IMG/VR virus record: IMGVR_UViG_3300043661_000028
Coordinates: 1 to 59,944 of that record
DNA: 59,944 nt
DNA from: a virus
Lineage: Duplodnaviria; Caudoviricetes
Direction: 5' to 3' (one strand)
Positions within the stretch are counted from its first letter, which is position 1. Each line of letters starts with the position of its first letter. The translations under genes were made by a program, and so were the position numbers. The notes under the pieces are model-generated. The model was not told where the DNA came from and did not search any database. It saw nothing but the letters and a program-made list of their open reading frames with translations. This document shows, in pieces, positions 4,324 to 36,491 of this stretch.

Positions 4324-4583
4324 GTCGCCGCCTGCGCGGGCTCGCTGATCTCATCGGCCTGCGCGGCGCCGGGCTGCGCCCGGGCGGCCGGGTCCGGGTC
4401 GCCGGCGCCGGCGAGGATCAGGCCGGCGATGTGGCAGATCCCGGCCTGGGCCTGCAGGGCCACCCACTTGGGCGGCTGACCGCCGGCGAGGCGGTCCGCG
4501 GTCAGCTCGGCGAGCCCGTTGAGGGCCGCGGCGATCTCCCGGGGGCTGTATCCCGTGCCGGGGCCGGGTGCGCCGCCGGTCAC
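4320..4583 (-). CDS. Hypothetical protein
   Basis: GTG 4583 with GTGA overlaps on both sides. Confidence 0.5.
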   Translation of the reverse strand: MTGGAPGPGTGYSPREIAAALNGLAELTADRLAGGQPPKWVALQAQAGICHIAGLILAGAGDPDPAARAQPGAAQADEISEPAQAAT

Positions 4584-30896: not shown

Positions 30897-32335
30897 GGCT
30901 GATTGACCGGCTGATCCGCCGGGACGGCTACTGGGAAGGCCAGGCCAGCGGCGCCGCGGTCCTGACCACCTCCTACGGGTCCCCGGACCGGGAGGCGGTC
31001 CTGCCGCAGCTGACCGCGTGGGCGCAGCAGGCCAACGCGTCCGCGTCACCGGTGTTCTCCGCCATCCTGGTCCGGATGATGCTGCTGGCCGAGGCGCAGT
31101 TCCAGCTGCAGGCCAAGGACGACAAGCACCTGTACGGGAACACCAGCCTGGCGGTGCTGGAGCACCCGTGGGGCCCGGACACGGTGTCGGGTGAGCTGAT
31201 CGCCCGCTGCGAGCAGGACGCCAGCGTGGCCGGGAACTCCTACACGTGGGCGCCCCCCGGCGAGGACGTCCTGGTCCGGCTCCGCCCCGACTGGACCACG
31301 ATCGTGTCCGAGCGGGTGGCGGTGGACAGCGGGGATCCCGCTCACCCGGGCTGGTACCGCAAGAAAATCGGCTACTGGCATGAGCCGCCCAGGTCGGTGA
31401 CCGACCAGGGCAGCGGGTTCCTCGCCCCCGCGGAAGAAGTGGCCCACTGGGCGCCCATCACCGACCCGAACGCCACGTTCCGGGGCATGTCCTGGCTGAC
31501 GCCGGTGATGCGGGACGTGCAGGGCGACGACGGGATGGCCCAGTACAAGATCCGGTACCTGACCAACAACGCCACGCCGAACATCGTCATCAAGTACGCG
31601 CAGAAGCTGCAGCCGGCCACGATCGATAGCATCCGGGACCGGGTCAACGCCCGGTACGGCGGCCCGGACAACGCCGGGAAGACCCTGATCCTGGATCAGG
31701 GCGCGGACCTGGTGCTGGCCGGGAACAGCCTGTTGCAGATGGACTTCGCGAACGTCACGCAGGCGGGCATCGAGCGGATCCTGGCCGCGTCGGGGGTGCC
31801 GCCGCTGCTGATCGGCCTGGAATCCATCAAGGGCGCCGGCAAGTCGTATCAGGAGGTCATCCGCCGGTTCGGGGACCTGACGCTGCGGCCGTTGTGGCGG
31901 TCGCTGTGCGGCGCGCTGGAACCCCTCGTCCCCGGCGTCCCGGCCGGAAGCCGCTTGTGGGTCGACACCAGCGACATCGCCGCGCTGCAGGACGGCGAGC
32001 AGGTCCGCGCGCAGGTCACCCTGATCCGCGCCCAGGCGCTGCTGGCACTGGAGCAGGCCGGTTATGACCGGATGAGCGCGGTCAAGGCGATCGAGGCCGG
32101 TGACATGGGGCAGCTGGAGGAGGCCGAGGAGCCGCCGCCGCCGCAGAACCTGCCGGTGCAACATTTGCTCGGGCAGCCCGGCCAGCCAGGCGCGACCGCG
32201 GACCCGCTGCCGCCGACCATGCCCAGGCTGCCGGTCGGGTCGACGTCGCCGGGTGACGGCGGGAACAACACGCGGCCGACCCCGCGGCCGTCGTCGGCGC
32301 GCCGGGCGCTCGAGGGCGCGAACGGCCGTGGATGA
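30893..32335 (+). CDS. Portal protein (HK97 type)
   Basis: GNSY...LRPD...FRGMSWL...YLTNNATP...NAGKTLIL...ILAASGVPPLLIG. Confidence 0.9.
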   Translation: MRLIDRLIRRDGYWEGQASGAAVLTTSYGSPDREAVLPQLTAWAQQANASASPVFSAILVRMMLLAEAQFQLQAKDDKHLYGNTSLAVLEHPWGPDTVSGELIARCEQDASVAGNSYTWAPPGEDVLVRLRPDWTTIVSERVAVDSGDPAHPGWYRKKIGYWHEPPRSVTDQGSGFLAPAEEVAHWAPITDPNATFRGMSWLTPVMRDVQGDDGMAQYKIRYLTNNATPNIVIKYAQKLQPATIDSIRDRVNARYGGPDNAGKTLILDQGADLVLAGNSLLQMDFANVTQAGIERILAASGVPPLLIGLESIKGAGKSYQEVIRRFGDLTLRPLWRSLCGALEPLVPGVPAGSRLWVDTSDIAALQDGEQVRAQVTLIRAQALLALEQAGYDRMSAVKAIEAGDMGQLEEAEEPPPPQNLPVQHLLGQPGQPGATADPLPPTMPRLPVGSTSPGDGGNNTRPTPRPSSARRALEGANGRG

Positions 32336-33635
32336 GCACGGCGCGGTCCGGCTCGGCGGCCAGGCTGCCCACCCAGGGGACACCGAACGCCTCCACGCGT
32401 ACTGGGTGCATGGTCCCGGCGCGGCCAAGGTTGCGTGGGGGACGCCCGGGGATTTTGACCGGTGCGTGGCCGAACTCGGCAAGTACATCAAGGACGCGGC
32501 CGGGTATTGCAATTTGGCGCACCATGCGGCGCTCGGCATCTGGCCTGCGCAGCACGCGGCGATGGAGAAGAAAGCGACCGGGAGGTCCACGGTGACGGTG
32601 ACGCAGCGCGCGGCGATGGCAACCGCGGACGTCAATGACCTGCCCGACGACCAGTTCGGTTACGTCGAGCAGGGCGGGGCCAAAGACGGGTCCGGGAAGA
32701 CCGTCCCGCGGTCGCTGCGGCATTTCCCGCTCCACGACAAGGCCCACGTCCAGAACGCGCTGGCCCAGGCATCGAAGTCACCGTTCGGCGACAAGGCCAT
32801 GCCGAAGATCAAGGCCGCAGCCAAGAAGTTCGGAGTTGACGTGAGCAGCGACAGCAACGGCAGCGCGTCCCGCGCGGAGCCGGTGTACTTCCGCACCTAT
32901 GAGCTCGAGGACATCCACATCGTCCGCGCGGCCCAGGGTGACAGCACCGGCCGGCTCGTCGAGGCGTACGCCACGGCGTTCAACGCCCCCGCCGAGATCC
33001 AGGACTTCGAGGGCCACTACATCGAGGAGATCGACCCGGCCGCGTTCAACAAGGTCCTCGCCGACATCGGCCGCAGCCGGGCGGGGTTCGGCAAGGTCAA
33101 GGTCATGTACAACCACGGGATGACGATCCACGGCACCCCGTCCGAGCGGGGCAGCATGCCGATCGCGACGCCCGTGGACATCCGTCCCGAGGCCCGCGGG
33201 CTGCTGACCCTGGCGCGGTACTCCGAGACACCGTTCGCCGATGAGGTCCTGGAGAACATCCGCAACGGCGCGATCACCGCCCAGTCGTTCATCGGCCGGA
33301 TCGTCCGCTCCGACCCGCAGGTCCGCGTCGGGGTCCGTCACCGGCCGCGCGGCGGGCAGCTGACCAGGGTCCGGCGCACCGAGCTGGGCCTGAAAGAGTT
33401 CGGCCCGACACCGTTCGAGGCCTACAGCGGCGCCGAGATCGTCGGCGTCCGCATGTCCGCTCCCGGCACCTGGGAGCCGGACGAGCACGAAGAGGCACTT
33501 CCCCCCGATGGTGAAGCCGCCGCCGGTGAGCCGCCCCCGCAAGGAGACGAGGGGCACTCGGCCCGGTATCACCAGCATTCGCTGTACGTCCTGAACTCTA
33601 AGGAGCTGCGGGAAAAGGCGGGGCTGGTCTGGTAA
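32328..33635 (+). CDS. Prohead protease with N-terminal accessory domains
   Basis: GTG 32328; YWVHGPGAAKVAWGTPGDFDRC domain; DUF6582-like RHFPLHDKAHVQNALA; protease core AYATAFN...MYNHG...QSFIG...EFGPTPFEAYSGA. Confidence 0.85.
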   Translation: MDEHGAVRLGGQAAHPGDTERLHAYWVHGPGAAKVAWGTPGDFDRCVAELGKYIKDAAGYCNLAHHAALGIWPAQHAAMEKKATGRSTVTVTQRAAMATADVNDLPDDQFGYVEQGGAKDGSGKTVPRSLRHFPLHDKAHVQNALAQASKSPFGDKAMPKIKAAAKKFGVDVSSDSNGSASRAEPVYFRTYELEDIHIVRAAQGDSTGRLVEAYATAFNAPAEIQDFEGHYIEEIDPAAFNKVLADIGRSRAGFGKVKVMYNHGMTIHGTPSERGSMPIATPVDIRPEARGLLTLARYSETPFADEVLENIRNGAITAQSFIGRIVRSDPQVRVGVRHRPRGGQLTRVRRTELGLKEFGPTPFEAYSGAEIVGVRMSAPGTWEPDEHEEALPPDGEAAAGEPPPQGDEGHSARYHQHSLYVLNSKELREKAGLVW

Positions 33636-33657: not shown

Positions 33658-35364
33658 ATGGCCACGCTGCAGGAATTCCTCGACGAGATGGCGAGGATCA
33701 AGCAAGAACTCCAGCGGATGGAATCCGAGGAGACAGTCACCGAGGAGAACGACGGCGACTACCGCGACAGCCTCCTGACCCGCTGGGAGGAACTGGACGG
33801 CAAGTCCAAGCCGCTCATCGAGCGGATGGAGAAGATCCGCGGCATCACCCGCGCCGCCGAAGACGAGGACAACCTCGAACGTCCCGACGGCGGGACCGGG
33901 ACCAGCGACGGGCGCTCCGGCGGCCGGCGCGGCGGGCCGGACCTGGTGACGAGCAGGTACCGCAACCCGTACGAGGACCTCGACTCGGTCAGGCATCACG
34001 TCGTCCGCACCTCCGAGCTCCGCGGCCGCGCGTTCGACGCGGTGGAACTTGAGGTCAAGCGCGGCAACCTGGCCCGCGATTTCGCCGAGAACGCCACCCG
34101 GATGGTGCAGGAGAACCCCGGCAAGCTCGGCCGCGGCGTCGCCGAGCACATGCTCCTCACCGGGTCCGAGGAATACCAGGACGCGTTCAGGGCCTACATG
34201 GAGGACCCGCAGGGCAACGCCCAGCGCGCCGCGCTGAGCCTGACACTCGCCAACGGCGGGTACCTGCTGCCGTTCGTGCTCGACCCGACGATCATCCTGA
34301 CCAACACCGGGTCGGCTAACCCGTGGCGGCGGATCTCCAACGTGAAGCAGACCACGTCGAACACATGGAACGGCGTCACATCGGCTGGCGTGAACGCGGC
34401 GTGGATCACTGAAGGTAACGTCGCCACCGACGTCACCCCGACCGTGGGGAACGTCCAGATCACCCCGCAGAAGGCCGCCGCGTGGGTGTTCGGTTCCTAT
34501 GAGGTGCTGGAGGACACCGACTTCGGGCAGCAGCTCCCCCGCTTGCTGGCCGACGCCAAGGACCGGCTGGAAGAGGCCGCGTTCGCGACCGGCGCGGGCG
34601 CCGGCGGCGTCCCGCAGGGCGTCATCGTCGGCGCGACCACCACCATCAACACGGCCACCACGCTGGTCGTCGCGGTCGGCGACATCTACGCCGTCCAGGG
34701 CGCGCTGCCACCGAGGTTCCGTAACGCTCCCGGGTGCGCGTGGGTCGCGAACGTCGCGATCATCAACAAGTTCCGGCAGCTCGACACCGCCGGCGGTGCG
34801 TCCTTCTGGACGAACCTGGGCAAGGGCCAGCCGGAGACGCTGCTCGGTGCTCCGATCTACGAGTCCACCACGATGGGCGGCGTCACCACCTCCGGGGCCC
34901 TCGAAGCCGTCATGGGCGACTTCGGGCAGTTCCTGGTCATTGACCGAGTCGGGGTCAGTTTGATCTATGAGCCCTTGGTTAAGGCCAGCGGCGGACAGCT
35001 ACCTTCAGGACAAGCCGGTCACTTCACACTGGCCGCCTGACAGAGCGATCTGTCAGTGAAAACCGCACCGTATCGGTGAACCCCACCAGGCAAGACGGGG
35101 GAATACCGAGGCAACCCGTACCGGGGAGTCCGTAGAGACTGAGCGTGTGGCAACTCCGATAGACCTGCGAAGCCGGTACAGCCGAGCAGGGCTGGAGCTG
35201 AAGTTACAGTCCGGTCTGCATCGATGGGAAAGATGCAGAGCCGCGCAGAAATGACGCGGCCTCACTCACCGTGACGAGTGAGTAACAATTCGTGGTTCTT
35301 GTTCTGGAGGGTGGGCAGCCAGGTCGCCGTACCTGGCGCTTTCAGGGTGATGAAGGGCCTGTAA
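33658..35364 (+). CDS. Major capsid protein (HK97 fold), spliced: join(33658..35019, 35293..35364), 477 aa
   Basis: ANGGYLLP, NAAWITEG, TLLGAPIYES, GDFGQFLVIDRVG; splicing restores the conserved end PSGQAG|WFLFWRVGSQVAVPGAFRVMKGL. Confidence 0.92.
35020..35292 (+). ncRNA. Group I self-splicing intron (273 nt, no ORF)
   Basis: Exon ends in U with U.G in P1; P2 CTGACAGA-GCGA-TCTGTCAG; P3 CCGCAC/GTGTGG; P4 TCGGT/ACCGA; P7 GACTG/CAGTC; P9 hairpins; terminal G at 35292. Confidence 0.9.
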
Positions 35365-35402: not shown

Positions 35403-35936
35403 ATGACAAATGACCCCGGTATATGCACAGTCGAAGGGTGTGGCCGGGTCGTAGTGGCGCACGGCTGGTGCCGTCGCCACTACGCCCGGATGTACCGCAA
35501 TGGAACGCTCGAAGCCCGCTCCTGGGAGCCGCAGGGAACATGCACGGTAGATGGCTGTGACCAGCCTGCCTGGTCCGGCGGCCTCTGCGAGATGCACCGC
35601 TGGCGCGTCCGGGAGCATGGCGAGCCGGGCGTGGCTGAGCCGGTCAAGCCGCATGCCCGGAAGCCGCGCAAGCCGTGTCTCGTGGAAGGCTGCGGCCGGC
35701 CGCGCAAGGGCGCCTCTTACTGCGGTCTGCACACTGAGCGGCTGCGCCGTACTGGCAAGGTCGGCCCAGCGCAGCCGACACGGGCCAAAGGCGTCGTCAA
35801 GCCACGGCCAGACGGCTACATCCGGCTGACGATGCCAGACGGGCGCCGGGTCCTAGAGCACGTGCTCGTGGAGGACCTGATGAAGTACATCGCCGAGTAT
35901 CACCGGGACGCCATGCTGAGCATGCTGTCCGGCTAG
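35403..35936 (+). pseudogene. Free-standing HNH homing endonuclease, apparently truncated before the catalytic core
   Basis: Three CxxxGC...CxxH repeats and DGYI...VLEH, but no following HH.NG...N motif; TATACT 6 nt upstream of the ATG. Confidence 0.65.
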
Positions 35937-35951
35937 GAAAGCAGGCTGACG

Positions 35952-36491
35952 ATGACGGCCAGATACTGCACGGACAGTTTCGTCCTGGCGACGATCCTGG
36001 CGCCCCCGTCGACGCTGGCCGCGGCGCCGAACGTCGGTGGTGGCACGTTCGCGGCGGCGGCCTACTTCTGGAAGATCACCGGGTCGAACGCACGCGGCGA
36101 GACGACCGCGAGCAACGAGGCGACGTGCTCGGTGGCGCTGAACGGCACGGCGACGCTCACCTGGGCGGCGCTCCCGGCCGGGACGACCGCGGTGAAGGTG
36201 TACCGGGGGACGGTCACGAACGCGGAGAACGTGCTGGTCGCGACGCTCGGCGCGGTGGTGACCTACACCGACACGGGGATCGCGGGCGTGGCGGGAGTGC
36301 CGCCCGTGGTGTCGGGGGCGGAGATCTCGTCGATACTGACGCAGGCGGGGGCGCTGCGGGACTCCGCGCACCCGGCGGTGGTGGCGAACCCGGCCGCGTT
36401 CAGCGTGACGGCGCCGGTGGCGGGCCAGGGGCACGTGAGCCCGGGGACGCTGCAGTATCTCGCGGTGCATTCGGCGGGACCGGAACTCTAG
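35952..36491 (+). CDS. Putative virion decoration protein (Ig/FN3-like)
   Basis: YFWKITGSNARGETTASNE...LTW...VKVYRGT...YTDTG. Confidence 0.6.
   Translation: MTARYCTDSFVLATILAPPSTLAAAPNVGGGTFAAAAYFWKITGSNARGETTASNEATCSVALNGTATLTWAALPAGTTAVKVYRGTVTNAENVLVATLGAVVTYTDTGIAGVAGVPPVVSGAEISSILTQAGALRDSAHPAVVANPAAFSVTAPVAGQGHVSPGTLQYLAVHSAGPEL

Follow-up and report, generated by a model that had tools for sequence, protein, structure and literature searches.

The td, nrdB, and nrdD introns of phage T4 are group I introns that lie in protein-coding genes and are spliced from the mRNA; the interrupted genes are those of nucleotide metabolism, and some of the T4 introns carry their own endonuclease genes. 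In cyanophage S-PM2, a psbA intron lacking an open reading frame (ORF) reportedly has a free-standing endonuclease gene beside it, an arrangement that Zeng, Bonocora and Shub are said to have described in 2009 as 'collaborative homing'. Here we analyze a stretch of 59,944 nucleotides (nt) from a virus of the Caudoviricetes (IMG/VR record IMGVR_UViG_3300043661_000028, positions 1 to 59,944), referred to below as the window, in which the major capsid gene is interrupted by an insert of 273 nt at positions 35020-35292. We propose with high confidence, on the evidence of its relatives and its predicted structure, that this insert is a functional group I intron. The window comes from a high-GC (70%) soil phage, which probably has an actinobacterial host.

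The closest described introns are those of Cluster J mycobacteriophages (Pope et al., 2013, PMC3706429, of which a part is drawn on here). In that part of the paper, a 265-bp insert of phage BAKA (28,186-28,450) is removed from RNA, as judged by reverse transcription polymerase chain reaction (RT-PCR), with a U ending exon 1 and a G ending the intron; the capsid gene of phage LittleE is split by a related intron, as confirmed by RT-PCR and by N-terminal protein sequencing across the junction; the Cluster J intron type is called 'most likely a group I'; and a capsid-gene intron of the lactococcal phage Tuc2009 is cited. Phage capsid-gene introns, and this very intron lineage, are already in print, and the window holds a further copy, from an uncultured soil phage. 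The initial annotation of the window, made from its letters, had placed known phage introns in genes of DNA metabolism and in terminase and lysin genes, a list that we leave standing except that it omitted capsid genes (LittleE and Tuc2009, from the same part of PMC3706429), and the rarity it implied was overstated. A second paper, PMC6669764, was set aside, its subject, in the part at hand, being something other than a capsid intron. The interrupted gene is laid out as follows.

33658..35019, + strand: major capsid gene exon 1, 454 codons, the last being GGT (Gly); PF05065; homologs at 70-88% identity
35020..35292, + strand: proposed group I intron, 273 nt; BAKA homology, core model 215 bits, covariation; no ORF of nuclease size
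35293..35364, + strand: major capsid gene exon 2, 23 codons plus stop (35362-35364); matches the C-termini of uninterrupted homologs

Homology and structure of the insert

A blastn search of the 273 nt against phage genomes returned 30 records, all of them Cluster J mycobacteriophages; the match covers insert positions 39-246 (208 nt) at 74.3% identity (E 1e-25) and falls in a gene for a minor tail protein. This gene is gene 34 in BAKA, where it is annotated as two joined pieces with the remark 'contains possible group 1 intron', and the alignment of the window copy with that of BAKA shows compensatory changes. The insert has a G+C content of 59.3%, compared with 67.8% for exon 1 and 70.2% for the whole window, and its minimum free energy has a z-score of -3.5, with none of 200 shuffled sequences folding equally well.

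The insert and BAKA, together with five viral copies at the same site, formed a seed alignment. A conserved-core pattern yielded 118 stretches from viral contigs, most of which proved to be full-length relatives by a sequence profile, which finds a single family copy in the window. The covariance model built for the core from J2/3 to P9.1 (model R1) matched 96 stretches across 80 sources, and 78 of these scored ≥97 bits; the copies of the window (215 bits, the top score by construction, this copy being a seed) and of BAKA (187 bits, likewise a seed) were both matched at full length. R1 did not model P3 and P7 as correctly paired, so the alignment is not fitted to these two helices. Across the 96 copies, standard pairs fill 96.4% of 4167 cells from P3 to P9.1, including the P3/P7 pseudoknot, and 41 of the 48 core pairs change on both sides. 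Shuffled alignments gave 76.5% and none of 500 reached the observed value, a control that overstates significance since the copies are related; free of that weakness are the slid control (30-45%) and the mispaired one, in which the P7 5' strand set against the P3 3' strand pairs in 23.5% of cells and the P3 5' strand set against the P7 3' strand in 34%. A structure-blind realignment of 75 near-full-length copies by MAFFT only gave 92-98% pairing per helix, with covariation in 37 of the 48 pairs. The predicted parts of the insert are listed below; percentages and fractions refer to paired cells and covarying pairs.

35016..35035, + strand: P1, exon CGGU plus intron CA (35016-35021) with the guide UGGCCG (35030-35035), 6 base pairs (bp)
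35028..35031, + strand: P10 guide segment, pairing with exon 2 bases 35293-35296, 4 bp with two wobbles
35037..35056, + strand: P2 hairpin, 8 bp, GCGA loop
35063..35068, + strand: P3 5' strand, partner 35145-35150; 92.5%, 5/6
35073..35109, + strand: P4 (35073-78 with 35104-09) around P5 (35081-84 with 35098-101); 99.8% and 99.4%
35110..35131, + strand: P6 stem with internal loop; outer and inner pairs 95-97%
35135..35141, + strand: P7 5' strand with bulged A35136, partner 35207-35212; 95.7%, 5/6
35145..35150, + strand: P3 3' strand, closing the P3/P7 pseudoknot, from the core-model count
35151..35200, + strand: P8 (35151-58 with 35193-200), variable extension; 94.9%, 7/8
35207..35212, + strand: P7 3' strand, preceded by the conserved J8/7 AAGUUA; the Rfam consensus AAGAUAUAGUC aligns here in an ortholog
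35213..35214, + strand: P9.0 5' side, partner 35290-35291, directly before the terminal G
35215..35282, + strand: 3' hairpins P9 (35215-39; 95.2%, 7/8), P9.1 (35240-60; 99.3%, 6/6), and P9.2 (35261-82)
35292, + strand: terminal G, 3' splice site, read from the sequence; the five same-site viral copies and BAKA also end in G, their junctions being fixed by protein alignment or, for BAKA, by RT-PCR

Apart from a single P8 pair and the P6 loop, the window's copy can form every one of the 48 core pairs, and it retains the conserved joining segments along with the bulged A and the terminal G. J4/5 and J5/4 are A-rich. The P7 pair beside the bulge (G35137-C35211, columns 248/457), which we take to be the guanosine-binding site, forms G-C in 83 of the 87 cells that can be scored and no other standard pair in any, and A occupies the bulge in 85 of 88 letters. 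Outside the core, P2 shows double-sided pair changes relative to the window (four in L065, one in L004). The ORFs wholly inside 35020-35292 encode 35 amino acids (+ strand) and 70 amino acids (- strand), a 44-residue ORF on the - strand overlaps the 5' end, and none within the 273 nt is of a size to encode a homing endonuclease of the intron's own. The initial annotation had read several of these elements directly, namely a 273-nt insert that follows a U and ends in G, P1 (CGGUCA/UGGCCG with U.G at the splice site), P2 with its GCGA loop, P7 (GACUG/CAGUC), and three 3' hairpins, and all are present as it described them.

The pairings at the splice sites follow the exons. In the window P1 sets the wobble U35019.G35032 at the splice site, and a U.G arrangement can be drawn in 16 of 16 mapped copies, where the junctions at the other sites were picked with the U/G rule in mind. 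The guide changes along with the exon, with CGGU/G-CCG at the window's site, CGAU/G-UCG at site A, and GGCGGU/G-CCGCC in BAKA; at sites B and D the P1 pairing in a fixed register is shorter. Likewise, the P10 segment of BAKA differs and matches, over a clean 6 bp, the different exon 2 of that gene; P10 extends over 6-7 bp in L002, L004, and L065 and over 1-5 bp at other sites. The first pair of P9.0 is G-C in each of the 14 scorable copies, and nine of the 14 have a standard second pair, with the variants GG/CC, GG/UC, and GA/UU.

We propose the following course of splicing for the window's copy. The compact, ORF-less intron would be part of a late transcript, in which the guide UGGCCG would pair with the last four bases of the exon and the first two of the intron to form P1, with U.G at the splice site. 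Free guanosine would dock at the P7 G-C pair beside the bulged A and attack after U35019. The terminal G35292 would then occupy the guanosine site, brought into place by P9.0 and by a short P10 that links the guide region to the first bases of exon 2, and the freed end of exon 1 would attack after G35292, such that GGU is joined to UGG and the last 23 residues of the HK97-type domain are restored. We infer that the window's copy would splice in this manner without the help of a protein.

The curated Rfam model of group I introns, RF00028, matches BAKA end to end (28.6 bits, E 2.5e-5) and gave 16 matches in 14 of 20 other family loci, where it was the sole family matched; two of the matches, in L122 (56.7 bits) and L073 (55.4 bits), lie above its gathering score of 50 bits. 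Three of eight same-site copies were matched, in L084 (41.6 bits), L065 (39.6 bits), and L002 (35.9 bits). L084 and L148 are counted as same-site in that the profile spans both exon flanks and their upstream frames match the capsid profile to positions 235-246. The Rfam alignment of L084 places P1, P2, P3, P4, P5, P6, P8, and P9 on the segments to which we had already assigned them.

In addition to the cautions given above on the R1 score and on the shuffled control, several results weigh against a functional intron in the window. The chief one is that RF00028 leaves the window's copy unmatched, at its gathering threshold over the whole stretch and at E ≤10 on intervals of 551 and 293 bases; it also gave no match at E ≤1 in the same-site copies of L004, L029, L062, and L148. 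(The Rfam rows that the window did produce, RcsR1, snoU82P, and sR17 at E 2-6, were taken as chance.) P6 contains an internal loop in the window's copy that makes its middle register uncertain, P10 is 4 bp long with two wobbles, and the second P9.0 pair, G.U in the window, is non-standard in five of the 14 scorable copies. Among public sequencing runs, the RNA-type runs X14, X20, and X21 gave only relatives that are about 88-95% alike and still contain the insert, and X14 is possibly a DNA run. In vitro self-splicing goes unreported even for BAKA in the part of PMC3706429 drawn on here. The initial annotation had itself held that the lack of a covariance-model hit would tell against an intron, which is formally what RF00028 returned for the window copy; this miss is outweighed, in our view, because RF00028 matches close orthologs and other members of the family, and we conclude that RF00028 is insensitive to this branch of introns. 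We nevertheless agree with that annotation in reading the insert as a group I intron in the major capsid gene, because it is homologous to a spliced intron, its full core covaries, including the P3/P7 pseudoknot, its guides track the exons, and exon 2 is conserved and under selection.

The alternative that survives best, and one that we consider improbable, accepts that the insert is a group I intron by descent and holds that this copy no longer splices, so that the capsid gene is broken and the phage is defective or a prophage remnant. Such a loss would be in keeping with the Rfam miss, with the decay of the adjacent HNH gene (see below), and with the RNA-type libraries, which gave no support for splicing in this phage. 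However, a copy that had ceased to splice is not expected from what the window retains, that is, the core pairs, the joining segments, the bulged A, and the terminal G, together with an intact exon 1 of 454 codons and an intact exon 2. Moreover, in run X1, which contains the whole stretch and is the probable source of the contig, the word depth of the window contig exceeds that of an uninterrupted relative roughly tenfold (41.8 versus 4.4), although contig depth is a poor measure of abundance.

Junction and C-terminus of the capsid protein

The capsid ORF as called (33658..35040, + strand) encodes 460 amino acids and ends ...GQAGHFTLAA, its stop lying 7 codons into the insert. Its identity as an HK97-family major capsid protein comes from Pfam PF05065 Phage_capsid (E 4.8e-33, profile positions 1-248 of 280 for the called ORF). 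This truncated form is without Pfam positions 249-280; coverage is 1-279 of 280 in the uninterrupted homologs P0005 and P0002 and ends at 242 in the interrupted P0006. The last base of exon 1 is T (U in the RNA) at 35019 and TGG (Trp) opens exon 2 at 35293, which continues TGG-TTC-TTG... with the frame unchanged. A search of the protein collection listed 120 capsid homologs, 119 besides the window's own protein, and among these 119 the sequence reads through the junction as G.AG/W[FY][ML]FWR...FRVMKG. in 109 (the slash marks the junction), ends with ...LAA and a stop at the same point in nine, and has a different ending in one, P0041. This alignment with intron-less homologs bears out the early stop, the joining of 35019 to 35293, and the restored C-terminus that the initial annotation had proposed. 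At the DNA level, 52 of 67 related loci in viral contigs are uninterrupted, five (L002, L004, L029, L062, and L065) are split at this very codon boundary by 270-284 nt, and the remaining 10 either do not show the junction or have none that could be recognised. The protein alone allows an alternative join one base to the left, which likewise gives Gly-Trp; the junction between 35019 and 35293 was chosen because the U/G rule together with P1 and P9.0 picks it.

Exon 2 is intact in all six insert-bearing loci. Between L029 and L062, 14 of its 23 codons differ, and all 14 differences are synonymous, with no non-synonymous one; on this pattern of substitution exon 2 is under purifying selection and hence predicted to be translated. 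The inserts contain 3-6 in-frame stops, four of them in the window's copy, and that of L062, at 284 nt, is not a multiple of 3 and puts exon 2 in another frame. Therefore, only precise removal of the insert yields the conserved C-terminus.

That the short protein ending in ...HFTLAA is itself the functional product, with the 23 codons a leftover from the insertion of some other mobile element, is in our estimate very improbable. At first sight the nine homologs on record that end in ...LAA do suggest a conserved alternative C-terminus. However, the residues before LAA differ among the truncated proteins (HFT, QFE, RREEFA, RL...) while the DNA CTGGCCGCCT is invariant in the six same-site copies, which points to a constraint on an RNA guide rather than on protein, such that the conserved ending would be the guide sequence read as protein. 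The short product would also lack part of the Pfam domain, as noted above, and both the selection on exon 2 and the full ribozyme core in the insert speak against it. Least probable of all, to the point where we give it hardly any weight, is that ribosomes cross the insert (by a hop, a frameshift, or reading through the stop), or that it is an intein or a group II intron. Although the length of the window insert is divisible by 3, its four in-frame stops and the frame shift of the 284-nt insert of L062 tell against translation through it, inteins have no stops, group II introns are far larger than 273 nt, and no group II family was matched in the Rfam searches of the window.

Three further observations concern the same site. 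In the uninterrupted loci L031, L035, L040, and L043, GQAA/WAMFWR replaces GQAG/WF.FWR exactly at the insertion site. In L009 and L010, both also uninterrupted, the first 18 bases of exon 2 (codons for W-F-M-F-W-R) are repeated without change 8 bases past the capsid stop (4363-4380 and 4442-4459), and this repeat may be the footprint of a past insertion or repair event. The relative at low depth in run X1 (record 2, compared over window positions 34981-35018) passes from exon 1 straight into exon-2-like sequence, with GGA in place of GGT at the junction.

The proposed splicing has practical consequences. As the initial annotation had expected, standard annotation misses the C-terminus here: gene callers drop the last 23 residues, and besides the window's protein at least nine homologs in public protein sets are recorded in the truncated form. 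In this phage group, the C-termini that enter capsid phylogenies, structure predictions, and proteomics searches are wrong. The most abundant protein of the virion should, on our reading, depend on efficient ribozyme splicing in a bacterial cell that is translating.

Intron family and neighboring genes

Among related capsid genes, members of the intron family occur at five sites, near reference residues 209, 278-283, 389, 431, and 454. The window's capsid gene is interrupted at the residue ~454 site only, the other four sites being uninterrupted. The following family copies were located in capsid genes of related loci.

L065, 3878-4137, 4609-4882, and 4944-5245: three copies
L062, 3630-3889, 4110-4372, and 4874-5186: three copies
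L061, 3631-3891 and 4116-4385: two copies
L054, 3610-3875: single copy
L055, 4009-4281: single copy
L063, 3611-3907: single copy

The capsid genes of L062 and L065 thus hold three copies each, whereas that of the window holds one. When all in-frame joins were enumerated, the join with T before the insert and G as its last base lay within 2 nt of the best protein-scored join in eight of 10 inserts; the junction at site A of L061 is ambiguous, its nearest U/G join lying 5 nt from the best protein-scored one, and that of L067 is not resolvable. Several contigs among L069-L186 hold two or three family copies. Of 38 upstream frames not selected by capsid similarity, seven match capsid Pfam families (PF05065 in five, two of them weakly, PF25209 in one, and PF17236, weakly, in one), one matches a tail family (BAKA), one matches Endonuclease_7, and 29 match nothing; a PHROG scan of these 29 frames gave seven matches to one family of unknown function and none for the other 22. 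In the open-access literature searched we found no survey of the ~270-nt intron family or of its multiple capsid sites.

Two neighboring genes complete the locus.

32100..33635, + strand: prohead protease-domain gene upstream of the capsid gene, head-assembly module context; Pfam PF04586 Peptidase_S78, E 1.9e-7
35403..35936, + strand: free-standing HNH-endonuclease-like gene; phrog_5351, E 6e-20, N-terminal Cys/His repeats only

A Pfam search of the ORF at 35403-35936 gave nothing significant. Compared with the full-length genes at the same position in L040, L052, L002, L004, and L046, this ORF is without approximately 44 residues, in frame, that include the catalytic HNH block. Five of the six loci that have the site-E intron, and 13 of the 52 that lack it, have an HNH gene after the capsid stop (Fisher p 0.009, a test that ignores relatedness and includes some loci with little downstream DNA). 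This link between HNH gene and intron resembles 'collaborative homing' and is only a lead. L040, which is uninterrupted and has GQAA/WAMFWR at the junction, also has a full-length HNH gene downstream. After the HNH remnant comes an ORF for 179 amino acids (35952-36491, + strand). Nine related loci have a counterpart of 61-91% identity downstream of their capsid gene; the PHROG matches of the window's ORF are weak (esterase/lipase, E 1.5e-4; major head protein, E 1e-3).

We put forward, tentatively and as a view that may well prove wrong, that the window's intron is one of a large, apparently uncatalogued family of ORF-less group I introns of ~270 nt that is specialised in virion genes of soil actinophages, above all the major capsid gene, with at least five sites in this capsid family, up to three copies per gene, and members in other capsid Pfam families as well. 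Its spread would be aided by the free-standing HNH genes that follow the capsid gene, and the window would represent an end state, with a fixed intron and a helper nuclease inactivated by in-frame deletion. The multiple sites, the multi-copy genes, and the possible HNH link, which we only sketch here, are a natural data set on how ORF-less introns choose and reach their sites.

Comparison with described introns

The window's intron shares with the group I introns of RF00028 the common P1-P9 architecture, the P3/P7 pseudoknot, the conserved P7 and J8/7 strings, and the terminal G. Members of its family reach or approach the curated score of that model, whereas the window's copy itself goes undetected by it. 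With the psbA system of S-PM2 the window has in common an ORF-less intron and a separate endonuclease gene beside the interrupted gene. The two differ in that the nuclease gene of the window is HNH-like, lies 3' of exon 2, and has lost its catalytic block, and in that such genes also stand beside uninterrupted alleles.

The introns of Cluster J are nearest. The tail-gene introns of BAKA and Optimus and the capsid-gene intron of LittleE have a homologous RNA core. Compared with BAKA, the window's intron differs in host gene and site, lying in the PF05065 capsid gene of an uncultured soil phage with 23 codons still to follow, and also in P2, the P8 extension, and P9.2. The LittleE intron carries a LAGLIDADG gene, which that of the window does not. 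Splicing has been shown for the introns of BAKA and LittleE, whereas for the window's copy it is predicted. From LittleE it is known that a capsid gene can rely on an intron of this kind, and the window would extend that observation to uncultured soil phages.

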